DNA of 64,000 bases from Candidatus Levyibacteriota bacterium (GTDB lineage Bacteria > Patescibacteriota > Microgenomatia > Levybacterales > UBA12049), in contig CAWBPM010000002.1 in the NCBI GenBank assembly GCA_963790825.1, forward strand, positions 295,159-359,158. The letters are read 5' to 3'. A program made the translations under genes and the position numbers. Under the pieces are notes generated by a model. It was not told where the DNA came from. It saw only the letters and a list, made by a program, of their open reading frames with translations, and did no database searches. Shown one piece after another: positions 1,905 to 47,788 of this stretch (its first letter is position 1; every line of letters starts with the position of its first letter).

Positions 1905-2594
1905 CTATACTCTGCTTTTAAGATCAAACAACAGATCGCGGACTAATGTAGCTTTTATATGATCCTTTTGTTGGTTATTTAGTAACTCCCCAAGTCCTTC
2001 TAAAATTGTATTGGGATTTACTGTATTTTCTATAATATCAATAAGATCGGCAAAATATTCACTTGTATTTTTCCCAGTTCTCATCCTAACGATTTTCTCG
2101 TTAATTGGAAAATCCTTGACGAACATAAAATGCGCGTCATATAAATCTCTGTTTTGTAACTTTTTCCTATCGGTTATGGCGCATAGTTTATGAGCAAACA
2201 TACATTCCGGAGACAAAGTTGGAATAGTAATACCATAAAAATTTTTATTAATATATGTGTCAGGGTAATCACGCTTACTCATTTCTATTTTTACTCTCTG
2301 TTCCCCTTTTTCATAACTTCCTAACCAAAACCAAGTAAAATGTTTATTCACCTGGTCATCAATGATCAAATACTTCTTTATAATATTTGATACTGCTTCT
2401 TCAGGTAATGTTTCTGAAATGACATTAAAATCAAGATCAACGGAAAAACGATCTAATTCATAAAACATGTAGAGACACGTACCGCCTTTAAAAGCAAGTC
2501 TCCCTTGTAATTCAGGAGTCGTATATATATCTCGTAAAATATTTTTTAATATTTGTTCGTATTTCTTCCGATCTAACATATTATTTCTGTGCAT
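1905..2594 (-). CDS. abiEii: AbiEii/AbiGii-family nucleotidyltransferase toxin (type IV TA / abortive infection)
   Basis: 229 aa. The motif AFKGGTCLYMFYELDRFSVDLDFNV is characteristic of the DUF1814/AbiEii nucleotidyltransferase fold. Overlaps the upstream partner by 14 nt. Confidence 0.7.
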   Translation of the reverse strand: MHRNNMLDRKKYEQILKNILRDIYTTPELQGRLAFKGGTCLYMFYELDRFSVDLDFNVISETLPEEAVSNIIKKYLIIDDQVNKHFTWFWLGSYEKGEQRVKIEMSKRDYPDTYINKNFYGITIPTLSPECMFAHKLCAITDRKKLQNRDLYDAHFMFVKDFPINEKIVRMRTGKNTSEYFADLIDIIENTVNPNTILEGLGELLNNQQKDHIKATLVRDLLFDLKSRV

Positions 2595-3168
2595 TAATAA
2601 CTTTAATAAGTGCGTTCACTTCATTCTCTAATCTCTTATTTCCATAAATTTTTGATATCAGCGAAAGCTTTTCCGCGTCAACACCAAGAAGATTATCAAA
2701 ATAAAAACCGGGGAAGACGTATAAACAATCACAAATAGTTCGTTCTTTATCCGCTATAATGTATCTGCCATTATCGGTTAATCCTAGCTGAGAATAGAAG
2801 ATCGTTTCCTTAGCTTTATGATAGATATAATGTTGATCATTTATTGTATATTTTTTACTCCGTAAAGATATTGCATATATCGTTTCATAATATTGAAACG
2901 TTAATCCATGCATTTGGCTTGCGGTATATAAAGAAATATATGATAATGGAACAAGTTTTTGAACAATATCCAAGGGAGTGTAGTCTTGCCCATACGCGTA
3001 TACACCCTTAGAAATATGTAGTAGCCGCTTTTCTCTCAAGTAATATTTTATACGCTCAATGAGTTTTCTTCGTTCAGAAATTTTCCACAAAATTGATAAA
3101 TCTTCTATTGTAAATACCTTTTTCCCAGAAGTTGCCAATTTCTCTATATTTGTAGTTTGATGCTCCAT
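2581..3168 (-). CDS. abiEi: AbiEi-family antitoxin / transcriptional regulator
   Basis: 195 aa. Pairs with and overlaps the AbiEii gene. Has an N-terminal wHTH-like region and a C-terminal domain typical of AbiEi_4 proteins. Confidence 0.6.
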   Translation of the reverse strand: MEHQTTNIEKLATSGKKVFTIEDLSILWKISERRKLIERIKYYLREKRLLHISKGVYAYGQDYTPLDIVQKLVPLSYISLYTASQMHGLTFQYYETIYAISLRSKKYTINDQHYIYHKAKETIFYSQLGLTDNGRYIIADKERTICDCLYVFPGFYFDNLLGVDAEKLSLISKIYGNKRLENEVNALIKVINAQK

Positions 3169-3998: not shown

Positions 3999-5864
3999 TT
4001 ATATGTATATCTCCTTCGGATCGGTAGTTAAAAGCGGATGTTCTTTCTCCGATGCTACGACTTTGACGGCTACGTGATTCTGATCGGCAATGATTAACGC
4101 TTCGCCCCGCTCACAGGTTAGGAGAAATTGTGATTCGTATTCACTCAAATGAAATTCCTGTGTGACCTGTTTAATTGTTGTAGTGTCCTGGCGCATGAGG
4201 ATACGAAGGGAAGACTGACTGGCAATGGCTCTCCCATAATCTTGTTTGAGGAAATCCTGTGCCTGTTGGGAAATAATGGTGACTCCCAGGTAATATTTCC
4301 GTGCTCGTCGGACTAATCCGGCAATAAATCTGGCTGATTCAACGTGTTCCAAAAGCATCCAACCTTCATCTATCACGAGCATACGTTTTTGTGGATGAGA
4401 TTTCACCTGTGACTCAACAAAATTAGCAATGACCACCATCATAATTTGCCTGAGAGATTCATGAAGATCTTTTATATTGAAAACGATAAGACGATTCTCA
4501 AGTTGTATATTTGTCTGTTCATCAAAAACTGTCGATAGTGATCCTTTGACAAACCGTTCCAATCTATTGCAAATATCTTTTTGCTTCATTGTTTTAAGAG
4601 TTTTATATAAGTCTTTGACTAATGGGAATTCCTGGTGTTTTGCATTCATTTTTTTCTTTCCATTCATTGTGAAGCCAAATTCTTTGTAGGTCAGAAGTAT
4701 TGCCTTATCCATTACCGCCCGCTCTTCGGGAGAGAGTCCTTCAACCATAAGGGAAATAATTTCGGTAAGATTCTGAATATGTTCAGATAAAACATTTTCA
4801 CCATTTTGTGTAATAGAAAAATCAAAAGGATTTATTTTCTCCTTACTGGTAGCGGATAGTTTAATATACGTTCCCCTTACAGATTTTGCCAGTTGTTTGT
4901 ATTCCCGCTCAGGATCAATAACAATCACCTTTGTCCCCTGCATGAGCTGTCTGAGGATTTCAACTTTTGTGGTGTAACTTTTACCGGATCCGGATTGAGC
5001 AAAGATAATGGCATTGGCATTATTGAGTGAAAACCTGTCGACAATAACCAGCGAGTTATTTGATTTGTTAATGCCATAGAGTATTCCTGCCTCCTGCACA
5101 AGTTCTGAAGAGACAAAAGGAAAGGTTAGTGCGCCGGAGGAGCTGTCTAGATTTCGCCTCTGAGAGAGCAGGTTTTCTCCCCTCGGGAGTACCGATTGTA
5201 ACCCTTCAATCTGCTGGTAGATTGCGGTTTTTATATAAAACAACCTGGTTGCCATAACCGTTTCTAAAATCTTGGTGATTTTATTAAGTTCCGATACAGA
5301 GTCGGCAGTAATAGTCATGTAAATGGAAAACTGAAACAGCTTTTCTTTTCCCCGTTGAATATTGTTTTTAAGCAGAATTGCCGAATCCAGGGGATCGGTA
5401 ATTTCAGAACCAACTAACCGTCCGTTTTTAATCATCGCCCGTTTTGTTGCTTCAAGCTCAGTTATTTTTCTGTTCAGTTTTGGCAGAGCAAGGAGTGGAT
5501 CAACTTTTTCAATATGATAGGAGATGTCGATGTTGTAGTTAAAGTTGATAAGCATACTAAGCCATCCCGTACCGGCAACATAGGGAAACCCGCTGATAAA
5601 CAGTGTACGGACAAACTTTTCTCCCATTGACAAGTAACTGCTATTTTCCATCAGTCCCGAGTACGAAATTAAATCAATCTGGTCCTGTTCGCCGAAATTA
5701 AACTGAAATGATTTTTTCAATAATTCTTTTTTCTTGTTTTTGTATTGCAACTTTTTTTGCAAGCGTTTCATTGTCCTTTTTAAATGAATTCGCTTTGCGT
5801 TTTGCAGCGGTTGTAATGAAATATCGGTTAGATTAAACATATGATGTTTTAAGCAGCATATCAA
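3999..5864 (-). CDS. virB4: VirB4/TrbE/CagE-family T4SS ATPase, C-terminal part of a split gene
   Basis: Walker A FAQSGSGKSYTTK and a Walker B-like MLVIDEGWMLL. The conserved N-domain stretch LFISGFPYVAGTGWLSMLINF is present. Overlaps the upstream ORF by 32 nt in another frame. Confidence 0.8.
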   Translation of the reverse strand: MICCLKHHMFNLTDISLQPLQNAKRIHLKRTMKRLQKKLQYKNKKKELLKKSFQFNFGEQDQIDLISYSGLMENSSYLSMGEKFVRTLFISGFPYVAGTGWLSMLINFNYNIDISYHIEKVDPLLALPKLNRKITELEATKRAMIKNGRLVGSEITDPLDSAILLKNNIQRGKEKLFQFSIYMTITADSVSELNKITKILETVMATRLFYIKTAIYQQIEGLQSVLPRGENLLSQRRNLDSSSGALTFPFVSSELVQEAGILYGINKSNNSLVIVDRFSLNNANAIIFAQSGSGKSYTTKVEILRQLMQGTKVIVIDPEREYKQLAKSVRGTYIKLSATSKEKINPFDFSITQNGENVLSEHIQNLTEIISLMVEGLSPEERAVMDKAILLTYKEFGFTMNGKKKMNAKHQEFPLVKDLYKTLKTMKQKDICNRLERFVKGSLSTVFDEQTNIQLENRLIVFNIKDLHESLRQIMMVVIANFVESQVKSHPQKRMLVIDEGWMLLEHVESARFIAGLVRRARKYYLGVTIISQQAQDFLKQDYGRAIASQSSLRILMRQDTTTIKQVTQEFHLSEYESQFLLTCERGEALIIADQNHVAVKVVASEKEHPLLTTDPKEIYI

Positions 5865-6450: not shown

Positions 6451-6940
6451 TTAGCCCTCCTTTTTTGTTTGTTTTTATTGAGAATATATACTTAGGGCTG
6501 AGAATGAGCTGCTCCAAGCGGATAATATCAGAAAATACGATTTTTTTAAGGGAGATTTTTTCAACCTTTTTGTCTTTTGCCCTTTTAAGTAAGCGGAATT
6601 GCCTTTTCTCAGTTACCGGCAGATATATGTCCCGCCCGTACGCATCATTTTTGTTATACACATAATATTTCGGCCTGAGGTTATACCTAAGTAAAATACA
6701 AATCCAGCTTAGAACAACTTTCCCTTTTATTCTGAGAGCAAGGGTAAGACTGATAATCGCGGCAATGAGCGCGGCGGCAATTTTTACAATGCTTAGATGC
6801 AGCTTTGGCGGAAGGATGATAAATTCAACTGTTGACAGGAAAACCGGAATCATAAGCAAGATAATCTGTGTTAAATTGAGGCTTCCCGCAATCCTGTCCT
6901 CAACGGTTGTAATCTGCGCCGGAATAATTCTGGTTCTCAC
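6425..6940 (-). CDS. Small membrane protein, VirB3/TcpE-like T4SS component candidate
   Basis: 171 aa with two or three hydrophobic helices (IILLMIPVFLSTVEFIIL, IAAALIAAIISLTLAL). Position between VirB6-like and VirB4 matches VirB3 synteny. Confidence 0.3.
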   Translation of the reverse strand: MRTRIIPAQITTVEDRIAGSLNLTQIILLMIPVFLSTVEFIILPPKLHLSIVKIAAALIAAIISLTLALRIKGKVVLSWICILLRYNLRPKYYVYNKNDAYGRDIYLPVTEKRQFRLLKRAKDKKVEKISLKKIVFSDIIRLEQLILSPKYIFSIKTNKKGGLNVGIEQIK

Positions 6941-8235
6941 GCGTTAACGTACCTCCTTCGCCGTACTGCGTCATCGTCATCGGTTTGTTGTTGTTGTTGT
7001 TGCGACCCGGCATTTTCCCCCTTACGGCTTGTCATAGTATTAAGCATTTGTCCGCCCATATGGATTAAAGCACCCATTCGGGAGGTATAGAACATCATTT
7101 GGAATAACCAGGTGGGAATTTTAAGAAGGGTTAGAAATAGTCCTATGGCAATGACAATTGAGAGAAGTGAGCTGTCCGGATTATCGGGGATAGCCAGAAA
7201 GGAGGAAGCAAGTTGTATGACAACCACGTGCACAAAAATAATAAAGACGGTAACAAAGTATCCCTTAACCGCTGCCTCGGCAAAATCCGAGAACTTGGGG
7301 ACTGCCCACATGAGAAAGATAAAAGGAGAGAGGACGCCGGCCAGGACAACGAGAATAAGCCTGACAATATACATAAAAAGGAGGATAATTGCCACGATCA
7401 AAAAGATGATAAAAAAGATTAAAGTAATTATTGGTGTATGCCCGGTCAAAACACTCACAGGACTTATGGCATTGACCACCCATGCGTGGCTCAAACCCCC
7501 TGTTGTGTTAATCACCTCACTAACCAGTGCGTTGCAGGTGGTAATAACGTAGTCGCAAAGAAACAGGGAGACATTCGCGCCTAAAAATGCCAAACCGATA
7601 CGGGGAAGTAGGTGTTTAAGCTCTATCTCCTCAAAGCCAAAGGTTGAAGCCGACATAAAATGCAACCCTAAAAGAGCAACAACGAGAACAAATAACGAAT
7701 CAACAATTCCCAGGCTTACTGTCCAGAAGTGAAATACAACTGAGTTGCTAAGTAAACTTGGAGTTGTGGTTAGATAACCTATAATCGCATTCACAATTGG
7801 CTGTGTTGCGCTTTGCACTATGTTTTGCATCAGTCCTGTAATTGCGCTGATAAGAACCTGTGCAATGGCGCCCGTTGGACTTTGGGCTGCAATGGGAATC
7901 AAACTGGTTGCTAAGGAGGCAGCGGGTGAGACGGGGGCAATAAGGGCATTTTGCAAAAGAGAGACAACAACATTTGCCGAAAGAACAAGAGAAAGACCTA
8001 TGAGGGCATTTCTGATAGTTTTCCTGGCCTGCTCCAACGCTTCCGGATGGCCGGTTGAGGTGATGTATTGGTATCCTCCTTTAATTAAGAAGAGAATCGC
8101 TGATGCCGATGCTAAAAGAGTAAGAATCTGAAGGGTGTCACTTGTGTAGTTGGTAATGTCCGCTCCTGCCGCAAATACAGGCGGAACGACAAAAAGAAAG
8201 AGAGTAGCTCCATAAAGTAAGATCTTCTGCTTCAT
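6937..8235 (-). CDS. VirB6/TrbL-like polytopic membrane protein with an N-terminal pilin-like domain and a C-terminal polyQ/polyD tract
   Basis: 432 aa with more than six TM segments. Residues 1-110 (signal peptide plus two hydrophobic segments, GGYQYITSTGHPEALEQARKTIRNALIGLSLVL) are paralogous to the 113-aa pilin-like ORF upstream. C-terminus reads SQQQQQQTDDDD, encoded by a (ttg)6 repeat at 6985-7002. Confidence 0.45.
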   Translation of the reverse strand: MKQKILLYGATLFLFVVPPVFAAGADITNYTSDTLQILTLLASASAILFLIKGGYQYITSTGHPEALEQARKTIRNALIGLSLVLSANVVVSLLQNALIAPVSPAASLATSLIPIAAQSPTGAIAQVLISAITGLMQNIVQSATQPIVNAIIGYLTTTPSLLSNSVVFHFWTVSLGIVDSLFVLVVALLGLHFMSASTFGFEEIELKHLLPRIGLAFLGANVSLFLCDYVITTCNALVSEVINTTGGLSHAWVVNAISPVSVLTGHTPIITLIFFIIFLIVAIILLFMYIVRLILVVLAGVLSPFIFLMWAVPKFSDFAEAAVKGYFVTVFIIFVHVVVIQLASSFLAIPDNPDSSLLSIVIAIGLFLTLLKIPTWLFQMMFYTSRMGALIHMGGQMLNTMTSRKGENAGSQQQQQQTDDDDAVRRRRYVNA

Positions 8236-14073: not shown

Positions 14074-14445
14074 CTCCTTTCCAACAAAAAACCTCTCCTG
14101 AAAGAGAGGTATAATACAAAAAAATTGTTTACCAAATTTTCTTGGTCAAATCCGTCCCTTTCCAAGGGCTGGGTTTGGCACCGCTTAATAATTACCGGTT
14201 GCCGGGTGGGTCACTGAGCCAGAACTCTCGCCACCGCTCTTGATTAATTGTTAAGCCTATTAAATAACTTTTTAAAGGCTTTGTCAATAATTCAATACTA
14301 AGGAGTTGTTTAGGCTCTTCTAGGCAAGAGTCAAGCATTCTTTATTCTCAGTCAGTTAGTTGAACTCGCGGAATCGGTAAATGTCCAAAACAGCGAGACT
14401 AATTTTAATGCTTTTTGTAAAGCTTTCCCTTCTCCTTGTCCCAAA

Positions 14446-20581: not shown

Positions 20582-21382
20582 TTATTCTACTTTTTCCCAA
20601 ACATCAGGGGTTTTAGCATTAAGTATTCTCTCATTCCAGGATAAATATAGAGGGAATGGTTCATCAAATTGTTTTTCAAATAGTGCTTTTGCAAAGTAAT
20701 ACAGGTGTTTCTTTAACTTTTCTCTTGGGCAAATAAATAAAACTGCGGGGAACGCTTGCCCGTTTGCGTTGTCCTCCCAATTACCTCCCTCAACATATTG
20801 CATGTATGTTAATATCCGTGAACGAAGTATTCCGGCAGAAGCATAGTCTCTGAATAATTCAAGGAAATATCTTCTGGTTTTCTCTTTTGTTTTTACTGAT
20901 ATATAAGCACTTGGCAGGGGAGTAGGAAAATACTCATATTGCAGCAATTGGCTTTCAGTAAAAAAACGGATCTCTTCATCTTTTTTCTTCTTTGCTAAAA
21001 AGAAAAGATAAACATCTGCTAAGTCTAGACAGTAAGAAATAAAACTTTCTGTCCGACTCTTTTCTTTGTACACTTTACCCAGTGCTTCAACGTCGCAGTC
21101 CTTTTCCTGTTTTAGGATTTGTATTCCTTTAGTACCCAGAAAATAGACAGCCGGCTTTGTCCGGTTTTTAAATGAATCAGGCAGATAATATCTGTGAATA
21201 TACTTATTATCTTTTAAGTCTTTAAGCCAGAGTTGTATTCTTTTGGGGTTTTTATGATTGAATAATATTTGCAGTTGGTTAGTATTTAGGAATCTGAATT
21301 TATATATATATTTTAATATTTGTTTTTCTTTGCCGGTTATTTTAACTTCTGTTTTGTTCTCTGTTTTTATTATTTTTTTCAT
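20582..21382 (-). CDS. Replication-relaxation (Replic_Relax, PF13814-like) family wHTH protein
   Basis: N-terminal EKQILKYIYKFRFLNTNQLQILF matches the wHTH start typical of Replic_Relax proteins. Lies immediately downstream of the VirD4-like gene, as in Gram-positive conjugative elements. Confidence 0.45.
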   Translation of the reverse strand: MKKIIKTENKTEVKITGKEKQILKYIYKFRFLNTNQLQILFNHKNPKRIQLWLKDLKDNKYIHRYYLPDSFKNRTKPAVYFLGTKGIQILKQEKDCDVEALGKVYKEKSRTESFISYCLDLADVYLFFLAKKKKDEEIRFFTESQLLQYEYFPTPLPSAYISVKTKEKTRRYFLELFRDYASAGILRSRILTYMQYVEGGNWEDNANGQAFPAVLFICPREKLKKHLYYFAKALFEKQFDEPFPLYLSWNERILNAKTPDVWEKVE

Positions 21383-21490: not shown

Positions 21491-24196
21491 CTATTTTATC
21501 TGCTTCGTATCATCGGGAAGTGACCCTGTTATTTTATTTTTTGTCTCCGTAGTTTCTTTCTGTCTTGCTGCTTGCTGCTCTTTATTGACCGGTTTTTTCA
21601 GGTAGACAATTGCCCAGTTATTTCTCGAAGATGCAATGAGTTTCTCCATCTTTTTACTATCTCTTTTGACGGGCATATAGATTGTCTCACCGGAAAAAGG
21701 TTCTTCGGATTCTATGGCTGAAATTTTAATATAGAATCTGTAACGGGGAAGACTCATTATTTCGCCCTTTACTAAGTAGGGCGCAAACTGGTTAAGCATT
21801 AAATCTTCATCAATATAATTGCCGGACCGGAATGAGATAACTGTGGTAACGTTTGCCAGGATAATATTGGTAACATCCCTGTCTTTTTGCTGGGAGGTTG
21901 ACTGCTCGGCAATAATTAAAGGCATCCTGTACTTTCTGCCCTCTGTTATCATTTTTGTAAATGACTGGGTTGCAAAATTTTGGAATTCGTCAACATATAC
22001 ATAAAATGTTTTCCTCTTGCTCTCCGGTATATATGCTCTTTTTAATGCAGCTTGCTGGAGTTTGGTCATGATTGTTGTTCCCATGAGCCGTGAGGAGTCT
22101 TCACCTAATTTTTGTGAGAAATTACAAATGAGAATTTTACCGCCGTTTATAATTTCATCAAAATTAATAGTGGATTTCTCCTGTTCTAAAATTCTTTTAG
22201 CAGTAGGAGAGCGGAGAAACCTTCCAACCTTGGCTGTAATCCCCTGAGTCATTTTTACTATCTGATAATCTCCGGCTTTGCCGAATTCATATTTCCAGAA
22301 ATCTACTAAATCCTCATCCGTCAGTTTTGACACAACCTGTTTGCGAAAGGTAGGATTAGTCATGATTTTATTGATGGTAAATAATGTTGCGCCCGGTACA
22401 GTAAACGCTGTGTAAATAGTATTTCTTAAAATATATTCAATTCTGTGAGCATTAGTACTCTCATCTTTTGAAAATACTTTTCTGAAAAGCGACACTACAC
22501 CTTCTGCAACTACCTCTTTTTCCAGCTCCGCTTCGTCTTCATCGAGTCCGGGTGTCAACTCCATGACGTTTATTCCGATCGGATACTTTAAGTCTATCGG
22601 GTTAATATATATGAGATCGTCTTTCCGGCTTGTCGGAATAGAAGCCACTAAATCTTCTGCTACATCTCCATGCGGATCAATAAATGCTAAACCGCGGCCT
22701 TCTTCAATATCATGTTTTGCCATGGAAAACATTAAGGTAGTTTTACCTGAACCGGTTCGGCCTAAAATATACATATGCGTTTGCCGCTCTTCTTCGGTTA
22801 ATCCGATCGGCGTTGTTACTCCCGCATAATTATTTTCTCCAAAAACAGTATCCAGCTCCGTACCGTTTTTTAGTGTTATTGGGGCGGGTAATTCTTTTGA
22901 ATGTGCTTTTACAATGTTTTCCGTTTGCGTAACATACTTAAAAGGAAAATGATATAGGTCTGCTATCTCAGACGCGGAATATAATGAGGAACTTGCATTG
23001 TTAATTAAAGATAACATTCGTTTTCGAAACACAAATAGTTGTACCCGATCCGAGACATATGGAATTCCATATGTTTTGAAGAAGGACTGATATTTAGGAA
23101 CGTTATACATAGCAAGGGAGGAATGAAAACCTTTAACCCTCTGTGCAACTTCAGACTTTTCCTTCATAACAACTAGTAACCTGATTGATCCTTCAAACAA
23201 CTCCTGATCAATTTTTGTTTTGATTGACTGGATCACTTCCTGCTCAAAGCTACTTAGTATCCTAGCCGGCCGAAGGTGCTGCATTTGTATAACTTGCTGA
23301 TACTGGTATTGCCCGGAAATATGTATCGACTGTGTGTTTGAATGCATCAGCTCAGTTATTGCCCACTGCAGATTATTTCCGATTGCCAATATCATTTTAA
23401 GTAATACTTTTAGAAGGAATAACAATATTTTTACAACTAAAGGTGCTCGGGGTTTACTTAAATACCTTAGTATATCTTCATTGTTGAGGATCATCTGAGA
23501 AAGAATATCCGCTTCTTTGATTTTGGTTCCGGAAACTACTACTTGCAAAGAGATTAATTCTCCGGGTTTTAACTGCGTCATCATACCGGTGATATACGCA
23601 ACCGGATCATGTTCCTGCAGAGTGGATTGTTTTTGCAGAGGAAAAGCAAAATGTTTTCTTAATTGAAACCCGGCAACTTTTATATGCAATTTATTATTAG
23701 TTTTATCAACAGTGGGAATATATTCACTAGTTGTTTTCACCAGGACATGGGGAAGGTAGGAGAGAATCTCCCGTTTTATGTTCTCTTTTTCTTCCGGTGT
23801 TGTCCTGACAATGAAACGGATTCCCAGCTCTCTGCTTGAAACAATTTCGAAAGAAAGAATCGTTTTCCTGCCCAGTAATTTATCTGTAAACGAATCCCGC
23901 TTTGATAAGCCGTGTATCATTGAAAAAAATTCCTGCGTGGTATATGCAGACTTTTCGCTTATTGTCGGAGGGGTAATTTCAAGCAGAACCGATTCTTCAT
24001 TCATTAGTTTTCTGAAATTGAAATACCAGCGGGCAATTAGTATTACCAGCACACATACGACAAGAAAAAGAATAAAAGGAAAGGATGAGAAAGGAGAGTG
24101 ATGAGCAAAGTTAATAAACTCATCTTTTAAATGAGGAAGAGAGGCAGTTAACCGGCTAAGTATATATCCAGCTTCCCAATGATGCCAGTCATTCAT
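21491..24196 (-). CDS. virD4: Type IV coupling protein (VirD4/TraG/TraD family) with a long N-terminal membrane-anchored extension
   Basis: Walker A ILGRTGSGKTTLMF, Walker B FYVYVDEFQNFAT and an N-terminal TM helix. 901 aa. Confidence 0.8.
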   Translation of the reverse strand: MNDWHHWEAGYILSRLTASLPHLKDEFINFAHHSPFSSFPFILFLVVCVLVILIARWYFNFRKLMNEESVLLEITPPTISEKSAYTTQEFFSMIHGLSKRDSFTDKLLGRKTILSFEIVSSRELGIRFIVRTTPEEKENIKREILSYLPHVLVKTTSEYIPTVDKTNNKLHIKVAGFQLRKHFAFPLQKQSTLQEHDPVAYITGMMTQLKPGELISLQVVVSGTKIKEADILSQMILNNEDILRYLSKPRAPLVVKILLFLLKVLLKMILAIGNNLQWAITELMHSNTQSIHISGQYQYQQVIQMQHLRPARILSSFEQEVIQSIKTKIDQELFEGSIRLLVVMKEKSEVAQRVKGFHSSLAMYNVPKYQSFFKTYGIPYVSDRVQLFVFRKRMLSLINNASSSLYSASEIADLYHFPFKYVTQTENIVKAHSKELPAPITLKNGTELDTVFGENNYAGVTTPIGLTEEERQTHMYILGRTGSGKTTLMFSMAKHDIEEGRGLAFIDPHGDVAEDLVASIPTSRKDDLIYINPIDLKYPIGINVMELTPGLDEDEAELEKEVVAEGVVSLFRKVFSKDESTNAHRIEYILRNTIYTAFTVPGATLFTINKIMTNPTFRKQVVSKLTDEDLVDFWKYEFGKAGDYQIVKMTQGITAKVGRFLRSPTAKRILEQEKSTINFDEIINGGKILICNFSQKLGEDSSRLMGTTIMTKLQQAALKRAYIPESKRKTFYVYVDEFQNFATQSFTKMITEGRKYRMPLIIAEQSTSQQKDRDVTNIILANVTTVISFRSGNYIDEDLMLNQFAPYLVKGEIMSLPRYRFYIKISAIESEEPFSGETIYMPVKRDSKKMEKLIASSRNNWAIVYLKKPVNKEQQAARQKETTETKNKITGSLPDDTKQIK

Positions 24197-25177: not shown

Positions 25178-25761
25178 TTAATAAAAAGCTTTTGCATTTT
25201 CTTAATTTCTCCCCACCTCTGCCTCAGCTCTCTAATATATCAAAATCCTAGTTAGCCAAAATAATCTACTTTCATTGGCTATAACGATACATTAGAGGCA
25301 ACTGAGGTTAAACTTTATACGTGATGTTTATGCCAAATAACGAAAATTTGTCTGTTTTTAGGGAATAGACTCTTAGCTCTCTGGTTCGAATCCCTTTTGG
25401 TTGTCAAAAGAGTTTAAGCTAACGAACTCGACCTAGGATTTATATCTTTGAAATTAAGATTGGTTTGTTCTATCAATCTATTCTCGCATTTGCAAACACG
25501 AGCGACCCGTTTGGTACCCCTGATGCACTTTCTTTTGAGCTCTTTCTGCCTTGTATTAACAAAATTAGGGTCGTTTATCAAGAATCCGAATCTATCGATA
25601 GTGATCAATTATTACCCCAGGATACTTCTTTCTTTAGGGGATATTATGTGAAGAATATGAATTAAAGAATTATTTATTTTAAGCACAGGCTGGCTGTTTC
25701 AGATTTCCCGAACTTTTGAACCTATTTAAAAGCACTCAGGGAGCGTGCTTCACCTGAATAA

Positions 25762-26022
25762 CTACTTTGCAACTCCTTCAAAAATCAGCTGTTTAATAAA
25801 AGTTTGATAAGGTACATCCATCTGATGCGCCTTTATTTTAACTCGATCAATTAATGTTTGTGGTAAGCGGATTGTAATAGGCTTACTGGTTAACTTTAAA
25901 TTAGGAAATTTCCAATTCTCAACATGACTATAGTCTACATACTCTGTAGAATCATGAGTCTGCCAAAATTTTCTTTCTTCATCTTCATTATTAAATTTAG
26001 GAATTTGCTTTAATTGTTTCAT
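25762..26022 (-). CDS. brnA: BrnA-type antitoxin (RHH/CopG-like)
   Basis: FNNEDEERKFWQTHDSTEYVDYS...PITIRLPQTLIDRVKIKAHQMDVPYQTFIKQLI matches the BrnA family. 4-nt gap to brnT. Confidence 0.75.
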   Translation of the reverse strand: MKQLKQIPKFNNEDEERKFWQTHDSTEYVDYSHVENWKFPNLKLTSKPITIRLPQTLIDRVKIKAHQMDVPYQTFIKQLIFEGVAK

Positions 26023-26026
26023 ATAT

Positions 26027-26320
26027 TTATCCTTCTTTGTACACCTCCATTTCTTTTTTGTTAGCTCCTCTTCCTGAGATTATTCTAATTTTATCTTTCC
26101 TGATGGCAAATACTACAAAAAGCATTTTATTTTCTGTAGTTTTTCCTATTGCAATGAAACGCTCTTCCTGTTCTTGATGTTTGAAATCTTTTTTTATCTT
26201 AACATCTTCGTCTAAAAATACTTCTTCCGTTTCATTTGGAGCTATACCATGTTTTTTATAGCTTTTATCTATATTCCACTTATCCCATTCAAATCCAAAA
26301 ATAGCATTCAAATCAATCAT
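26027..26320 (-). CDS. brnT: BrnT-type ribonuclease toxin (DUF497)
   Basis: FEWDKWNIDKSYKKHGIAPNETEEVF...IRIISGRGANKKEMEVY matches BrnT/DUF497. Confidence 0.8.
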   Translation of the reverse strand: MIDLNAIFGFEWDKWNIDKSYKKHGIAPNETEEVFLDEDVKIKKDFKHQEQEERFIAIGKTTENKMLFVVFAIRKDKIRIISGRGANKKEMEVYKEG

Positions 26321-26476
26321 CTGTACATATGATACATGTACAATAGTCGCATGTCAATAGCTAAAATTATCGCTTTAGCCTCTGCTGATCATAGTAAAGT
26401 ATTCGAGTCGCCTCAGGGTTCAAACATTCTTAAGTCTAACAAAGGTGAGATTATTTTTGAAGATTAATTAGCAATT

Positions 26477-26557
26477 TAGCCCGTTCTATCAATCTATTCG
26501 TATGTTTGATACTGTAGGCGTCCCCTTTGGTACCCCCTATGGGACGATGTCCGAACC
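26477..26557. repeat. tRNA-Leu-flank-derived element, copy B
   Basis: Shares tagcccgtt(c/a)tatcaatctattcg...cgtcccctttggtacc with 47652-47716 (the native tRNA-Leu 3-prime flank) and, more loosely, with 25465-25522. It adds the motif tggtaccccctatgggacgatgtccgaacc, which recurs at 44768-44797 and 45157-45186. Confidence 0.55.
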
Positions 26558-26643
26558 TATCTAACTATATCAATTGATCCTAACGAAAAATCCGAACTGC
26601 TGTTAATCCTTAACCTTTTTAAAATTAAGAAAGGAGAACAGCA

Positions 26644-27102
26644 GTGATAATGTCGTATTTTAACAAATTATTAGCCGTAAAAGAAGCGATAGATGTCTCA
26701 AAACTATATAACGAAAAGACGTTTTATAAGGCTTTTATTAAAGACTTAGAGAGAGTAAGAAATGAGGTAATTATTGAATCTCCATTTATTACCATTGAAC
26801 GGGTAAAATATTTTATACCGATATTTACTAAGCTAATAAAAAAAGGTGTACAAATTCATGTGTATACTCGTATAGCTGAAGAACAATCTGACGAAATGCA
26901 GTATCAAACTGAAAAGGGAATAGATCTACTAGAAGAGATTGGCGTTTTTGTTGTACCAGTGAATTGTTTTCTGCATAGGAAGTTAGCTATTATTGATAAC
27001 AATATAGTATGGGAGGGAAGTTTGAATATCTTATCGCAGAGAAACAGTCAAGAATTCATGCAAAGACTCAATAATCAATCAGAAGTAATCAAAATTGTAT
27101 AG
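26644..27102 (+). CDS. Phospholipase D-like (HKD) domain nuclease, Nuc-like
   Basis: The single HxK(x)4D motif HRKLAIIDNNIVWEGSLNI indicates a homodimeric single-HKD nuclease. Paralog of 46376-46825 (about 45% identity). Confidence 0.7.
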   Translation: MIMSYFNKLLAVKEAIDVSKLYNEKTFYKAFIKDLERVRNEVIIESPFITIERVKYFIPIFTKLIKKGVQIHVYTRIAEEQSDEMQYQTEKGIDLLEEIGVFVVPVNCFLHRKLAIIDNNIVWEGSLNILSQRNSQEFMQRLNNQSEVIKIV

Positions 27103-27130
27103 TTTTTAGGAATTAATATATATTGATAGT

Positions 27131-27412
27131 TTAATTTAATGTCGCATTTTCTTCCTTAACTTTTTCTGCCAAAAACATCTTAACTAAAGACTGATAAGGT
27201 ACATCACGTTTATTCGCAATAGTTTTGAGTGATGCAACTAACCATTCCGGAAGTCTGATTGAGACAGTTTTAGTTGAAGGCTTAAGTTTTAAGAATACAG
27301 GGTTAACAATAGCCGAACTGGCATCAAAATAGTCAAGCAAGTCATGGTTTGACCAGAACTCTCTTTCTTCATCTTCATTTTTAAACTCTGGTAATTGTTT
27401 GAGATTGCTCAT
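27131..27412 (-). CDS. brnA: BrnA-type antitoxin, second copy
   Basis: FKNEDEEREFWSNHDLLDYFD...VSIRLPEWLVASLKTIANKRDVPYQSLVKMFL. Confidence 0.75.
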   Translation of the reverse strand: MSNLKQLPEFKNEDEEREFWSNHDLLDYFDASSAIVNPVFLKLKPSTKTVSIRLPEWLVASLKTIANKRDVPYQSLVKMFLAEKVKEENATLN

Positions 27413-27424
27413 AATTTATTATAT

Positions 27425-27772
27425 TCACCTCTTTTCTGCTTTTTTCTCTTGTTCTTCTTGCGCTATATATAATGCTCTTCCTTTTTTACTCATATCCCAG
27501 GAAGCTATAACTCTGATTTTGTTATTTCTTATTGTAAAATAGATTTCAAGTCTTCTTCCTGCATCCGTTTTTCCAAGTATACCGAATCGTCGCTCATCAA
27601 GCGTTGAGTGTTTTGGATCTTTTAAGAAAATGAGTGGTTTATTAAAAAACACTTCCTCACTTTCTCTGGGTTCTGTATGATGTTTCTCCCTATTTTTAAT
27701 GATATTTACATCATTCCACTCAAAACCTTCTATATTCGCAAGATCATCCAGATCGAAATCATCTACGCTCAT
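27425..27772 (-). CDS. brnT: BrnT-type toxin, second copy
   Basis: FEWNDVNIIKNREKHHTEPRESEEVF...IRVIASWDMSKKGRALY. Confidence 0.8.
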   Translation of the reverse strand: MSVDDFDLDDLANIEGFEWNDVNIIKNREKHHTEPRESEEVFFNKPLIFLKDPKHSTLDERRFGILGKTDAGRRLEIYFTIRNNKIRVIASWDMSKKGRALYIAQEEQEKKAEKR

Positions 27773-27876
27773 ATGTTGTTATTATGTATATAACCATACA
27801 ATACAATTTGCAGTTTGTCAATAGCTTATAGTTAATATTTTACAACATAATAACATATATGTTATAAATAGCTATT

Positions 27877-28149
27877 ATGAGAACCTTGGAAGATTTTGAA
27901 AAAGAATTATTATCAGACCCTGAAGTTAAAAAGGAGTATGACAAACTTGCTCCTCGCTACGCATTGATTTCAGAATTAATAGCTGCACGTATAAAAAAAG
28001 GGTTAACGCAAAAAGAGTTAGCTGAAAGAATAGGAACTACACAATCATCCATTGCGCGATTAGAAGGGGGGAATGTAAATCCTTCTCTTGATTTTTTGGA
28101 GAAAATAGCACATGTATTAGAAAGTCAGCTTACAGTTCATTTTGCTTAA
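27877..28149 (+). CDS. XRE-family HTH protein (HigA-like antitoxin/regulator)
   Basis: LTQKELAERIGTTQSSIARLEGG is a classic XRE HTH. 90 aa. Divergent from BrnT-2 with inverted repeats in the shared intergenic region. Confidence 0.7.
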   Translation: MRTLEDFEKELLSDPEVKKEYDKLAPRYALISELIAARIKKGLTQKELAERIGTTQSSIARLEGGNVNPSLDFLEKIAHVLESQLTVHFA

Positions 28150-28409
28150 AACCTCATCTCATTATTCCAGCCTTCAAAATTTCAATAAAATGTCGTAAAG
28201 ATGTCATTCTGCGATATGAAGCATAGAAAGCTAGAAAAAATAATTCCTACTTTCAATAAATATTATTGGAAATGCTTCTGGCTATAACCATAGTTTATAG
28301 CCAAACCACTAGGAGGTAATCTTATGTCGTGAAATGATGTTTTACGACGCGGACGTAATATTGCAAGTTTAGCTCTACTACGGTTTAATTTCTTTAAGAG
28401 CTTATTGTT

Positions 28410-29195
28410 ATGATAAAAAAGATAGTATCAAGTATTTACACTGTTCTTGCCTCTCTATTTATAGCATTCGTAAGTTTTTGTATTATAGGAGTCTCATATG
28501 AAAAATCAAATTCATCTCATGTACAACCGTGGCAAATATTATTAGTTTTTGTGTTTCTCTTCAGCTTACTTATGTTTGTCGTTTCTGTCATTGGGAGCAT
28601 CCTGCATCATTTCTCAAAGGCGAGTACTCAAGTCACACCTAGCACTCCTTTAGAAACAAATGACTACATGACAGTACAAAATCAGAATTTTTCGATTCCA
28701 AATACCTCAAACATACAGCAAATGTCAACAAATCAAACTACTTATATTAATTATTCTCCTGTACAACGCTCTATAAATAGTAAGTTGATATTTAAAGTTA
28801 TTGCCAAATATGCATCTTTTATCTTTCTTATAAATCTTGCTTGTATATCCCTATCCGTGGTTATTTTTGGTGCTTTTGGGGCAATTTTACATTTTACTGA
28901 AGCATTAGGGATACTTTATGCTCTAATTTTTGGTAATATATTATCCTTGCCGTATGGATATATATTTTGTTATAAAGCCGTAGAAGAATATTTCCATAAA
29001 GGAGGGCTTACACAAAAGAATATTGGTTTTACGATTACTTTTACTGTTGTTATACTTGTTAGTTTAGCTTGGGGAATTATTAATTTACAACTTACTCATA
29101 CTTTTAATTTTCAGTATGGCTTCATACCTTTGCTACTTGCTATAATTGCTGCTAAAAGAGCAGAACGTAAATTTAATCAAGCTATACCCTCCTAA
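28410..29195 (+). CDS. Integral membrane protein, hypothetical
   Basis: 261 aa with six or more hydrophobic helices. Confidence 0.5.
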   Translation: MIKKIVSSIYTVLASLFIAFVSFCIIGVSYEKSNSSHVQPWQILLVFVFLFSLLMFVVSVIGSILHHFSKASTQVTPSTPLETNDYMTVQNQNFSIPNTSNIQQMSTNQTTYINYSPVQRSINSKLIFKVIAKYASFIFLINLACISLSVVIFGAFGAILHFTEALGILYALIFGNILSLPYGYIFCYKAVEEYFHKGGLTQKNIGFTITFTVVILVSLAWGIINLQLTHTFNFQYGFIPLLLAIIAAKRAERKFNQAIPS

Positions 29196-29572: not shown

Positions 29573-29837
29573 TTTTAGTATTACTTATCTCTCTTTAGAA
29601 GTCAAACTATGCCTATAACGATAAATTGTCGGCATATGTTAAACAGGATTATGTATAAGTTTATACCAAATAACGGAAAGTCTGCGTTTCATGGTCACAA
29701 TATATTTAATACCAAAATTCCCCCAAAAGGGACTCGAACCTAAAATCGAGGGAAAATAGAGAAAACTGAGCCTAAAACTTACTTAGGTTCGAGCGTCCCA
29801 TACGGGTTGTTAAATTTCGAGGCTGTTTTTAAGGTGT

Positions 29838-29910
29838 ACCCCTGGAGGGATTCGAACCCCCGACCTTGTCGTTAGAACCGACCAGCTCTATCCTCTGAGC
29901 TACAGGGGCG
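29838..29910 (-). tRNA. tRNA-Arg (anticodon TCT)
   Basis: Manual cloverleaf fold: acceptor GCCCCTG/CAGGGGT (G1-U72), D-stem GCTC/GAGC, anticodon loop GTTCTAA, T-arm GGGGG-TTCGAAT-CCCTC. CCA is not encoded. Confidence 0.8.
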
Positions 29911-45080: not shown

Positions 45081-45259
45081 GTTTTGATTATGGTATACGA
45101 TATTTTAAATGTCAATAGAAGAGTTTTGAAAACCCAAATATATTATAGGTCTTGGTACCCCATATGGAACGATGTCCGAACCTACGTAGCCTCACTTGAG
45201 TCTAAAGAAAAGACCGAATTGTTGCTAATTCTACAAAAAAATAAAACGGGATAAATCTA

Positions 45260-46198
45260 TTAGCTTTTATGTTGTTTAACAAAATTATCAAGATCTGCTT
45301 TTTCAATACGAATAAATTTTCCGCCTAATTTTACAGCTTTTAGTTTATTACTTCTAACATACCTTCTAACGCTTTCCGGATCAATCTGAAGTATTCTTGC
45401 CACCTCAATGGTTGTATAAAAAATTTGATTTTGTTGCTTTAACGAAATTGATTCCTGCGGCTTGAATGCTTCTAGGTAAATATCCAAAGATCTATTTATC
45501 GCATCATAGATTAATTCATAGTATGCGTTCATCTGTTCTTTTGTTTGCCCTATTTCCAGTGCAGTAAGATATCTATTTCTTTCTTCTTTTTTAATAATTG
45601 CAGGAGGAAAACCTGTCTGGATTAAGATAAAATTCATTAAAAGTCTGGCTGTCCGACCATTACCATCAGTAAACGGATGAATAGTTACCAGTTTAAAATG
45701 AGCATCACTAGCTAATTGTACTGGATTATCATTTGCAGTTCGTAACCATTGCACAAATTCGTTCATTAAGTCTGGTACCTTTAATGGGTTAGGAAGAATA
45801 GTTGTTGAGCCGGCTATTCTAACCGGAGTACTTCGTAATCTTCCAGCATTTGTATCATCAATTTTTTCTAATATAATTCTATGAATCTGCAGAATATCTT
45901 GAAATGTCAGTTCTTCTCTCTTTTTTTGCCGGGCTAGTCCTTGAATATAGGAAAAAGCCTTTGCATGATTAATTGCCTCTAAATGTTCATTTAGACTTTT
46001 ACCTTCCACTGTAATCCCTTTTTCCACAACAAGAGCAGTCTCTTGCCGAGATAGCGTATTCCCTTCAATTGCATTTGAAGTATAAGTTAATTCAACCCTA
46101 TACCACTCTTCAAGGTTATTTTCTATTGTCTTTGAAAAGGGTTTATAGCTATCCAAAAGGGATTTTTTTAGAAGAAGATCTTTTAGAATTTCATTCAT
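45260..46198 (-). CDS. fic: Fic-family protein with a C-terminal excisionase/MerR-like HTH
   Basis: Canonical HPFTDGNGRTARLL. The C-terminal IEVARILQIDPESVRRYVRSNKLKAVKLGGKFIRIEKADLDNFV resembles an Xis-type HTH. Confidence 0.8.
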   Translation of the reverse strand: MNEILKDLLLKKSLLDSYKPFSKTIENNLEEWYRVELTYTSNAIEGNTLSRQETALVVEKGITVEGKSLNEHLEAINHAKAFSYIQGLARQKKREELTFQDILQIHRIILEKIDDTNAGRLRSTPVRIAGSTTILPNPLKVPDLMNEFVQWLRTANDNPVQLASDAHFKLVTIHPFTDGNGRTARLLMNFILIQTGFPPAIIKKEERNRYLTALEIGQTKEQMNAYYELIYDAINRSLDIYLEAFKPQESISLKQQNQIFYTTIEVARILQIDPESVRRYVRSNKLKAVKLGGKFIRIEKADLDNFVKQHKS

Positions 46199-46375
46199 AC
46201 ATTGCTATTTTATACTACTTAAGACGACTTGTCAAGGATAAAAGTAGCATTGTATAGTAATGAATAGCAATAAGCCTATAATGGTGTACCCCTGGTGCAA
46301 ATTGCTTCGAACCCCTGCTGGCTCATTTTAATAATTTGATGGAGGCTTATCAAGCTGCCGGAGAGGAGACTAGGC

Positions 46376-46825
46376 ATGAATAACCTTCTTATTTCCCAAT
46401 TATTCGATGAGACAACCTTCTATGAACAGTTCATACATGATTTAGAAAAGTGCCAACAAGAGGTTATAATCGAAAGCCCGTTTATCACAACTGATAGAGC
46501 ACAACTATTTTTGCCGATTTTTCAACGCCTGCTGGATAAAGGAACCAAAATTTACATAGTTACCAGAGATCCGAAAGAACATTTTGAGGGAATGGAGGTT
46601 CAGTCTGAAGCAATTATACGAAAGTTTGAAGAAATGGGAGTCCAGACATTTCTCTGTTTAGGCAATCATCACCGGAAACTTGCGATTCTTGATAAACAAA
46701 TACTTTGGGAGGGAAGCTTGAATATCCTCTCTCAAACACATAGTATGGAAATTATGCGAAGAATTGATAATGACAGCCTAACTTTAGAAATGTTTCGCTT
46801 TCTTAAATTTTACAAATATATCTGA
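46376..46825 (+). CDS. Phospholipase D-like (HKD) nuclease, paralog 2
   Basis: HHRKLAILDKQILWEGSLNILSQ HKD motif. Colinear with 26644-27102. Preceded by the tRNA-Arg 3-prime-end motif at 46283-46295. Confidence 0.7.
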   Translation: MNNLLISQLFDETTFYEQFIHDLEKCQQEVIIESPFITTDRAQLFLPIFQRLLDKGTKIYIVTRDPKEHFEGMEVQSEAIIRKFEEMGVQTFLCLGNHHRKLAILDKQILWEGSLNILSQTHSMEIMRRIDNDSLTLEMFRFLKFYKYI

Positions 46826-47458: not shown

Positions 47459-47651
47459 ATTACATATTAGTAGTATACCAAAATATAATAATGATATTTT
47501 TAGATTCTACATATTCAACTACGCATCCAGTTTAAAAACACACTAGAAAATAAGTTTTCGAACATCCCATAAAGTGTTCGAGTCCCTCCAGGATTAGCCC
47601 TTCTTTGAGGCCATGAAAAATAAGATTAAATTTGAGGACTAATTAGTAGAT

Positions 47652-47716
47652 TAGCCCGTTATATCAATCTATTCGAGGTATTGACAAAGACATCGTCCCC
47701 TTTGGTACCGCGAGAG
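47652..47716. repeat. tRNA-Leu 3-prime flank element, native copy C (bipartite GTACCAAAGGGGACG ... GAATAGATTGATAnAACGGGCTAAT on the tRNA strand)
   Basis: Overlaps the 3-prime end of tRNA-Leu and the sequence immediately downstream. Copies lie at 26477-26534 and, more loosely, at 25465-25522. Confidence 0.55.
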
Positions 47717-47788
47717 AGACTCGAACTCTCATGTCCTTGCGGACGAAGGCTCTTAAGGCCTTTGTGTCTACCATTCCACCACCGCGGC
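47703..47788 (-). tRNA. tRNA-Leu (anticodon TAA) with encoded CCA and a long variable arm
   Basis: 86 nt. Acceptor GCCGCGG/TCGCGGT, D-region TGGTGGAATGGTAGACAC, anticodon stem AAGGC/GCCTT with loop CTTAAGA, variable arm GTCC-GCAA-GGAC, T-arm GAGAG-TTCGAGT-CTCTC, then ACCA. Confidence 0.85.

Follow-up and report, generated by a model that had tools for sequence, protein, structure and literature searches.

The window analysed here is a 64-kb stretch of the genome of a Candidatus Levyibacteriota bacterium (contig CAWBPM010000002.1, positions 295,159 to 359,158). At 25762–28149 of the window, six open reading frames (ORFs) form one compact block: a gene of the phospholipase D (PLD) family, termed PLD1, is located between two BrnT/BrnA toxin–antitoxin (TA) pairs, which are followed by one XRE-family helix-turn-helix (HTH) gene. 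BrnA1 (25762–26022, minus strand) is an antitoxin of the CopG/ribbon-helix-helix (RHH) type and is 86 residues in size; it matches the CopG_antitoxin family PF12441 over its full length, with 100.3 bits (E = 1.1e-28) against a Pfam gathering score (GA) of 28. The BrnT1 toxin (26027–26320, minus strand), 97 residues in size, covers profile positions 1–77 of 77 of BrnT_toxin PF04365 (77.1 bits, E = 1.3e-21, GA 34.5). PLD1 (26650–27102, plus strand) is a single-HKD protein of 150 residues (PLDc_2, 30.3 bits, GA 27); gene callers choose the ATG at 26650 as its start, and an alternative GTG at 26644 would give 152 residues. The second pair is composed of BrnA2 (27131–27412, minus strand; 93 residues; PF12441, 94.8 bits, E = 5.4e-27) and BrnT2 (27425–27772, minus strand; 115 residues; PF04365, 52.3 bits, E = 7.1e-14). 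The XRE protein (27877–28149, plus strand) is 90 residues in size and matches HTH_3 with 54.9 bits (E = 9.1e-15). These six identities had been given in an original prediction, which was made from the DNA letters, and they are correct: all six ORFs lie where it had placed them, and every one scores above its Pfam GA.

The strands alternate across the block, giving four separate transcription units; PLD1 and BrnA2 are convergent, with 28 nt between them. Both BrnTA operons are toxin-first, with gaps of 4 nt (BrnTA1) and 12 nt (BrnTA2). Upstream of BrnT1 there are one promoter-like site (26357–26329, 11/12 matches) and one palindrome (26316–26333), and BrnT2 is preceded by a promoter-like site at 27821–27793 (10/12 matches). 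The divergent intergenic region between BrnT2 and the XRE gene (27777–27865) contains operator-like inverted repeats, TGTTATTATGT / ACATAATAACA, and the palindrome ATAACATATATGTTAT. All these promoter assignments are weak, as 15 sigma-70-like sites were observed against a shuffle expectation of 15.3. Between the two pairs, the identity is 42% for BrnT and 46% for BrnA, and both pairs are 45–50% identical to a third pair in the relative L088; no further BrnTA pair is present in the 64-kb window. Judged from these values, the two pairs did not arise by recent duplication; they are either long-diverged paralogues or were acquired independently. Compared to the NCBIfam BrnA equivalog cut-off of 60, both antitoxins score lower (42.9 and 55.8). 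BrnT is a ribonuclease toxin, and the RHH antitoxin BrnA neutralizes BrnT and autorepresses the operon. Each BrnTA pair would act as an RNase-toxin/RHH-antitoxin addiction module for the DNA that carries it.

The XRE protein of the window possesses an N-terminal extension and one HTH_3/HTH_37-type domain. It is 40% identical to a 90-residue HTH protein that is encoded after a Gp49 toxin in L090, the closest syntenic relative of this locus. BrnTA2 occupies the position of this L090 Gp49/HigB-type toxin. Searching the window with L090 Gp49 by tblastn gave no match below E = 0.6, and the 104-nt gap upstream of the XRE gene contains no ORF. The original prediction took the protein for a lone XRE regulator; it is better read as a putative orphan HigA-type antitoxin or repressor, whose toxin is missing here.

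The block is located within a variable islet of ∼4.5 kb (∼25.27–29.84 kb), between a VirD4-like/relaxase pair on the left and a tRNA-Arg gene on the right. The left neighbour is a VirD4/TraG-like type IV coupling protein of 901 residues (21491–24196, minus strand), beyond which lies a Replic_Relax protein (20582–21382). The right anchor is tRNA-Arg(tct) (29836–29909, minus strand); it is followed by an AI-2E transporter, tRNA-Gly and a GDSL lipase, in the same order as in the relative L002. Besides the six genes, the islet carries a membrane protein of 261 residues (28410–29195, plus strand), which matched no family in Pfam or in PADLOC, whose models (v2.0) were searched as individual hidden Markov models (HMMs) throughout this work. 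The left boundary, 25276–25354, is a direct, though diverged, repeat of the tRNA-Arg 3′ flank, not of the tRNA itself; 60 of its 79 positions are identical to 29610–29684, the right partner, which is conserved in L090. At 25272–25294, 23 nt are identical to the tRNA-Arg flank of L090.

A second set of repeats lies inside the islet. About 87 nt directly 3′ of a tRNA-Leu gene (47623–47709) recur at 26448–26534 (80% identity) and at 25452–25518 (75%). Copy A (25452–25520, plus strand) is downstream of the BrnTA1 operon, contains the exact 17-mer GTTCTATCAATCTATTC, and is identical to 47641–47709 at 52 of 69 positions and to copy B at 44 of 54. Copy B (26448–26536, plus strand), which is located between the BrnT1 promoter and PLD1, is identical to 47623–47709 at 70 of 87 positions. 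Copies A and B are direct repeats that bracket BrnTA1, with a spacing of 1016 nt. The reverse case was found at a second PLD gene of the window, PLD2: a copy of the tRNA-Arg 3′ end (29830–29860) is present at 46279–46315, upstream of PLD2, which is itself near the tRNA-Leu gene. These crossed tRNA-flank repeats suggest cassette shuffling at tRNA-flank-like sites. The repeats support piecemeal insertion, in an order of events that we infer. Separately, one short palindromic element (TGGCTATAAC...TTATAGCCA) occurs in three copies in the intergenic DNA of the islet, at 28279–28304, 25276–25301 and 29610–29635.

PLD2 (46376–46825, plus strand) is 149 residues in size and has the full family C-terminus. 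It is flanked by a Fic gene with an excisionase-type HTH_17 (45260–46198, minus strand; PADLOC PDC-S04 7.4e-35, SoFic 8.7e-30) and by tRNA-Leu (47703–47788, minus strand). The original prediction had described a second nuclease paralogue beside a Fic protein, and it proved to be real; alignment of the two PLD proteins gave 50% identity over 129 residues.

Comparison with relatives showed which parts of the islet are stable. In L090, a micro-ORF is followed by PLD, Gp49 (HigB-like toxin), the 90-residue HTH and an MFS gene, after which come the flank of tRNA-Arg and the tRNA gene itself. The L090 PLD is 68% identical to PLD1 at the amino acid level and 74% at the nucleotide level, and the L090 tRNA-Arg region is 74–90% identical in nucleotides to 29610–29889 of the window. 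PLD1 is therefore syntenic with tRNA-Arg, and it would be the longer-standing resident of the islet. The nucleotide similarity between PLD1 and L090 is confined to 26698–27060 and leaves out the 5′ end of the gene as well as its last ∼14 codons, which points to rearrangement at either end. Where the window has BrnTA and L090 has Gp49/HigA, L002 has DUF3800 next to its PLD gene. At the equivalent left flank, L088 (72% identity in the VirD4-like gene) carries another BrnTA pair, what remains of a recombinase zinc ribbon, and genes for an acetyltransferase and a LigT-like protein, and L089 (64% identity in the VirD4-like gene) carries a serine recombinase of 535 residues, followed by housekeeping genes. 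The idea of a variable islet was borne out by such cargo beside the VirD4-like gene. A near-identical genome lacking the cassette was not found; the closest relatives found share 53–72% protein identity in the flanking genes. At L028 (1330–2568) and L076 (7690–7863), tRNA-Arg/Gly/Pro or tRNA-Gly/Pro genes are clustered directly upstream of the PLD gene. The counterparts of these tRNAs in the window (29836, 31086 and 44027) are spread over 14 kb, which fits repeated insertions between them.

We also called ORFs in 86 other PLD loci and clustered the neighbours within 3 kb. None of these loci has a BrnT or BrnA homologue in the 8 kb on either side of PLD (0/86); compared to them, the PLD–BrnTA association is unique to this genome. 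The nuclease sandwiched between TA pairs had been put forward as a possible unit, to be given up if the gene were ubiquitous and syntenic in relatives without TA neighbours. This is largely the case, as the PLD family is widespread and BrnT/BrnA neighbours are absent from the 86 other loci, and the sandwich as a functional unit found no support. Taken together, these observations indicate that the block is probably part of the variable islet, in which separate, self-contained cassettes of selfish or defence type have accumulated, and not one multi-gene system. The TA pairs would then act independently, and a role in defence or conflict is presumptive. As to the defence islet or addiction-stabilized cassette of the original prediction, one part stands: the islet is variable, and the window does carry defence-type genes (AbiEi/AbiEii and the SoFic-like Fic). 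However, no result shows the TA pairs regulating or stabilizing the nuclease.

It seems unlikely that the two BrnTA pairs, the XRE gene and PLD1 form one integrated cassette, be it an addiction-stabilized nuclease or a TA/XRE-controlled defence unit. Several features would suit such a cassette: the genes are tightly packed, down to the 28-nt convergent gap between PLD1 and BrnA2; the divergent promoter regions contain palindromes; Gp49 and HTH genes come right after PLD in L090; and a PLD–XRE fusion protein, P0401, shows that PLD–HTH cooperation exists in the family. However, the type of TA system beside PLD varies between the window (BrnTA) and L090 (Gp49/HigA), and L002 has DUF3800 instead. 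BrnTA1 is bracketed by its own repeats, the XRE protein of the window differs from the XRE that usually accompanies this PLD family (see below), and the alternating strands define four transcription units. Together with the lack of BrnT/BrnA near PLD in the 86 other loci, these points argue for separate cassettes.

PLD1 consists of one HKD domain of ∼150 residues; by inspection of the sequence, it has no signal peptide and no transmembrane (TM) segment. The HKD signature reads HRKLAIID...WEGSLN, of the form HxK(x)4D(x)6GSxN. His109, Lys111, Asp116, Gly123, Ser124 and Asn126 are invariant in a 26-member family alignment, and PLD1 keeps all 34 invariant columns. The AlphaFold2 model, which was built on the family alignment, has a mean predicted local distance difference test score (pLDDT) of 87. 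In Foldseek searches of the Protein Data Bank (PDB), the best matches were mouse Zucchini (4ggj, 6e-8), Helicobacter pylori NucT (6ehi, 1.1e-7) and Salmonella Nuc (1byr, 2.4e-7), with query-normalized TM-scores of 0.60–0.67, a probability of 1.00 and sequence identities of 14–21%. Only the fold comparison is informative here, as the sequence search of PDB chains gave nothing significant (best E = 0.46). PLD1 is a cytoplasmic single-HKD protein of the Zucchini/Nuc fold, with putative nuclease activity and a putative nucleic-acid substrate; the fold upholds the Nuc-like single-HKD nuclease of the original prediction. By analogy to Nuc and Zucchini, two PLD1 subunits would pair their HKD motifs to form a single shared active site, which would cut the nucleic-acid backbone in a metal-independent manner, via a phospho-histidine intermediate.

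It is hardly conceivable that PLD1 is a housekeeping enzyme of phospholipid metabolism, for example a synthase of cardiolipin or phosphatidylserine. Some homologues bear such names in JGI, and NCBIfam gives weak matches to ClsB/cardiolipin synthase (E = 0.002–0.004). However, the scores are 16–17 bits against cut-offs of 281–290 (17 against 281 for ClsB, 16.1 against 290 for the other model), PLD1 possesses a single HKD in 150 residues and no membrane segment, the best fold matches are nucleases, and the family is patchy and occurs in variable contexts. The candidate was rejected, and the cardiolipin synthase-like family, which the original prediction had named as an example of a housekeeping family that would refute it, did not turn out to be the home of this gene.

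Among the PADLOC models, PLD1 matched MkoC (8.8e-14, in the C-terminal PLD region, profile positions 984–1108), MkoB (5.9e-8, in the PLD region) and, weakly, DISARM DrmC (3e-4), and no others; PLD2 matched MkoC at 2.6e-11. Mokosh is known in two types, MkoA with MkoB (type I) and MkoC (type II); helicase and PLD together define the system, and its protective effect depends on the ATPase of the helicase (Millman et al. 2022, doi 10.1101/2022.05.11.491447). Searches with Pfam and PADLOC found no helicase domain in any ORF of 24.2–31 kb, and the fused helicase form occurs only in other genomes. PLD1, which lacks the helicase, is related to a component of Mokosh but does not constitute such a system.

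The neighbourhood on the left brings in a different explanation, which we regard as quite improbable: PLD1 could serve the adjacent type IV secretion system (T4SS) or DNA-transfer apparatus as an accessory nuclease, processing DNA in transfer or uptake as in the case of pKM101 Nuc and H. pylori NucT. Indeed, the islet abuts the VirD4-like and Replic_Relax genes, and T4SS-related genes lie further left in the window (3999–5864 and 6937–8235), encoding VirB4/TraG-like P-loop and pilin/TrbL-like proteins. VirB4-like and M23-peptidase-like genes recur near PLD in ∼7–11 of the 86 loci, and both Nuc and NucT are among the best fold matches. Nuc and NucT are exported, whereas PLD1 has neither signal peptide nor TM segment. 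Most PLD loci have no T4SS neighbour, and no T4SS genes lie close to PLD2. By sequence, PLD1 is closest to the Mokosh-type helicase fusions, not to plasmid Nuc; the PDB chain search gave nothing below E ∼0.5. In addition, the T4SS of Patescibacteria is reported to be widespread, mostly relaxase-less and largely non-conjugative (PMC12102498); because it is mostly relaxase-less, we do not call the region an integrative and conjugative element. Beside the T4SS-like genes there is a complete AbiEi/AbiEii pair (type IV TA/abortive infection; 1905–2594 and 2581–3168, minus strand; PADLOC 1.4e-55 and 2.6e-36). The T4SS-like, poorly annotated region also contains an S-adenosylmethionine riboswitch (RF00162, 49.7 bits) at 14145–14249 on the minus strand.

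The PLD family itself is large. There are 4346 homologues in a 90%-clustered collection, and the family comprises 2976 clusters at 50% identity (E ≤ 1e-3). At least 592 PLD loci were found among GTDB species genomes, mostly in Patescibacteria (Levy-, Gottesman-, Shapiro-, Daviesbacteria and others). The loci from outside this group are scattered metagenome-assembled genomes labelled Gammaproteobacteria, Desulfobacterota and Bdellovibrionales, and one Methanobacterium. Phage, plasmid and IMG/VR collections were searched with PLD as well; one weak phage match (29% identity), no plasmid match and no viral contig were obtained, so these collections give no sign of the family being phage- or plasmid-borne. 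By our own count, ∼40 of the best 150 cluster representatives are fusions of ∼1000–1100 residues, with the PLD domain near residues 790–950. Examples combine an AAA_11/AAA_12 domain (Upf1-like superfamily 1 helicase), PLDc_2 and a Top1-type zinc ribbon, and match PADLOC MkoA and MkoC; helicase fusions of ∼1050 residues are ∼50% identical to PLD1 within the PLD domain. Smaller variants occur too: among P0308–P0310, P0314 and P0299 (210–240 residues), several have C-terminal TM helices and others a Top1-type zinc ribbon without helicase, and P0401, the PLD–XRE HTH fusion, is 239 residues in size.

Most stand-alone PLD genes are accompanied by conserved small partners. One XRE gene of ∼72 residues was found in 61 loci; it is nearly always convergent and lies ∼250 nt beyond the PLD stop codon. 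It matches the PADLOC Control_protein (C-protein) model at 1.2e-8, and also CapH models. The second partner, termed S, is a small ORF of 60–100 residues directly 3′ of PLD and on the same strand, as in L005 (6450–6677), L007 (6469–6672), L017 (5618–5929) and ∼50 other loci. S forms three mutually homologous clusters (hhalign probabilities of 96%, 89% and 43%). Its structure model is of three helices (pLDDT 83); S has no match in Pfam or PADLOC and no PDB fold match at E ≤ 0.001. In 25 loci, including L007 (5864–6004) and L043 (7859–7999), a micro-ORF of ∼45 residues overlaps the PLD start. Its consensus is RWNQIFxSLxxTxxKLxxLGFTYYNGKVxII..EE, and the substitution rates at codon positions 1, 2 and 3 (0.42, 0.30 and 0.59) are coding-like. 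Micro-ORF-like copies away from PLD are present in the window at 1677–1829 and 518–613, upstream of an uncharacterized protein of 319 residues and beside AbiEii.

Among 90 PLD genes, 48 have both S and XRE, 7 have XRE only, 5 have S only, 19 are solo, 7 are helicase fusions, and 4 are at a contig edge. Beyond this core, the genes are unrelated from locus to locus, which marks a small self-contained mobile module. The outer neighbours are heterogeneous: serine recombinases, AbiEii, HicA, DUF3800, GIY-YIG, ordinary transporters and NUDIX proteins, with single cases of GajB, NucC, Dsr1, IetS and prokaryotic Argonaute-associated genes. L007 has a Fic gene ∼1 kb from its PLD. Two other origins for the sequences around PLD were considered and rejected. 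The small flanking ORFs are not helicase-fusion remnants, as BLAST and HMM comparisons were negative. Nor is the upstream sequence a tRNA gene read backwards: an Rfam search of 24.2–29.9 kb (E ≤ 1) found only the real tRNA-Arg. With ARAGORN, only 16 of 89 PLD genes had a real tRNA no further than 1.5 kb away, and the motif GTACC[CG]C...GAAC is present upstream of only 6 of 81, so that it is a lineage-specific feature and not a family trait.

Like other solo genes, the two PLD copies of the window lack these partners. When all six reading frames of the window were searched with HMMs of S, no homologue was found (best E = 0.85). The XRE of the window is not of the module type; it is on the same strand as PLD1, is 90 residues in size, and scores 46.9 bits against 80–112 bits for module members (lowest 80.4). 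These results suggest that both copies are solo survivors without module partners. In a crude neighbour-joining tree, PLD2 falls within the main stand-alone clade, in which S with XRE is common and solo genes are scattered, whereas PLD1 and the L002 protein are on a long branch beside the fused forms. The scattering of solo genes in the stand-alone clade suggests repeated loss of the partners. Solo PLD genes are numerous, both window copies included, which argues against indiscriminate toxicity of the enzyme and against S being an antidote that it cannot do without. Rather than a classical toxin, a nuclease of restricted substrate range would fit; its target would be nucleic acid that is foreign or modified, or else RNA, which has been proposed for Mokosh.

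Several observations weigh against reading the block as an islet of accumulated, working cassettes. At 76% identity over 79 nt, the repeats at the islet boundaries have diverged, and a Pfam scan of ∼40 ORFs of the window, most of the large ones among them, revealed no integrase or recombinase. PLD1 and BrnA2 converge across only 28 nt, a TA pair comes right after PLD in L090 too, and PLD–TA juxtaposition may recur within the small PLD1/L002/L090 sub-clade, for which three contexts are known. A defence role of the PLD family would draw on the homology to the Mokosh PLD and on neighbourhoods that are only partly enriched in defence genes. The remaining points concern PLD1 itself. An in-frame TAG costs it ∼7 C-terminal codons, the end of the family C-terminal helix; after the TAG, the frame continues with FLGINIY*, similar to the family C-terminus. 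The promoter scan found no recognizable sigma-70-like promoter upstream of PLD1 on the plus strand. The open frame at 26510–26647 (plus strand), whose stop overlaps the PLD1 start (...WDDVRTYLTISIDPNEKSELLLILNLFKIKKGEQQ*), sits where the micro-ORF precedes PLD genes elsewhere, but it has no ATG, GTG or TTG start. Given these three features, decay of PLD1 may be under way. The same peptide-like frame is present upstream of PLD in L002 and L040, and also at 45084–45254 of the window.

Taken to its end, this would make PLD1 a decaying, non-functional relic of the PLD–S–XRE module or of a helicase fusion, with the partners lost, a view to which we give little credence. The premature TAG, the startless upstream frame, the missing plus-strand promoter-like site and the absent partners all suit it, as does the lack of nucleotide similarity to L090 at the 5′ end and in the last ∼14 codons, which suggests rearrangement at both ends. 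However, nothing interrupts the 150 codons of the frame, all 34 invariant residues are kept, and the AlphaFold2 model is confident. The ratio of nonsynonymous to synonymous substitution (dN/dS) is ∼0.07–0.11 against L002 and L090; the values are rough, as dS is saturated. Purifying selection acts on PLD1. Solo copies are also common (19/90) and scattered over the tree, which fits viable solo genes.

The family-wide data allow one broader proposal, which we put forward tentatively as a possibility. A relative of Mokosh that lacks the helicase and is so far undescribed could have the stand-alone PLD as its effector. It would be a compact mobile conflict module, composed of micro-ORF, PLD, S and convergent C-protein-like XRE, that is widespread among Patescibacteria, with scattered occurrences in further phyla. 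Here, two solo copies would be retained at tRNA-linked hot spots, where small cassettes (BrnTA, Fic and HigA) would be exchanged at repeated tRNA-flank-like sites, pointing to cassette-shuffling recombination. Our literature search found nothing specific on a stand-alone PLD/XRE module, on PLD defence in the candidate phyla radiation (CPR) or on BrnTA in Patescibacteria, and the module was not found in PADLOC. Each gene of the block is of a kind already known, whereas neither the PLD family nor its micro-ORF/S/XRE module is characterized, and the module is apparently undescribed.

For the window, the result is mainly corrective: it would be unwarranted to present the nuclease/TA sandwich as a new defence system of several genes. 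The PLD family has thousands of members and is found in tiny CPR genomes, in which every retained gene is notable, and it is unstudied. As a rule it comes with two small, conserved companions that resemble no known protein family or fold, and its nuclease domain is common to Mokosh-like helicase fusions. If the module is indeed a defence or addiction system, it would be a minimal nuclease-based addition to the sparse catalogue of CPR immunity, and it would help to show what the Mokosh PLD domain does without the helicase.

Like the Brucella abortus prototype of BrnT/BrnA, both pairs encode a full-length BrnT_toxin followed by a CopG/RHH BrnA in the toxin-first order; they differ from it in that they score below the NCBIfam BrnA cut-off, are only 42–46% identical to each other, and have a putative activity. 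The XRE protein resembles the antitoxin of HigB/Gp49–HigA systems, which are toxin-first and have an XRE antitoxin with an N-terminal extension: it is 90 residues in size, has such an extension and shares 40% identity with the L090 HTH. Different from these systems, no toxin gene is adjacent to it or detectable in the window. The module XRE recalls the restriction nucleases regulated by controller (C) proteins, as it matches Control_protein models; however, the PLD module has no methyltransferase, its XRE is convergent instead of upstream, and the module XRE is not in the window. PLD1 has the ∼150-residue single HKD, the fold and the HxK(x)4D...GSxN motif of Nuc (pKM101/Salmonella, 1byr), NucT (6ehi) and Zucchini/MitoPLD (4ggj, 4gel), and by analogy it is expected to be a homodimer with a shared active site. 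It has no signal peptide like that of the exported Nuc and NucT and no mitochondrial anchor like that of Zucchini, and its genomic setting differs. Finally, although the islet has no COG1112/Upf1-like helicase, either in the same gene or elsewhere in the islet, and no serine/threonine kinase domain, PLD1 and PLD2 share their PLD subfamily with the C-terminal region of Mokosh MkoC.

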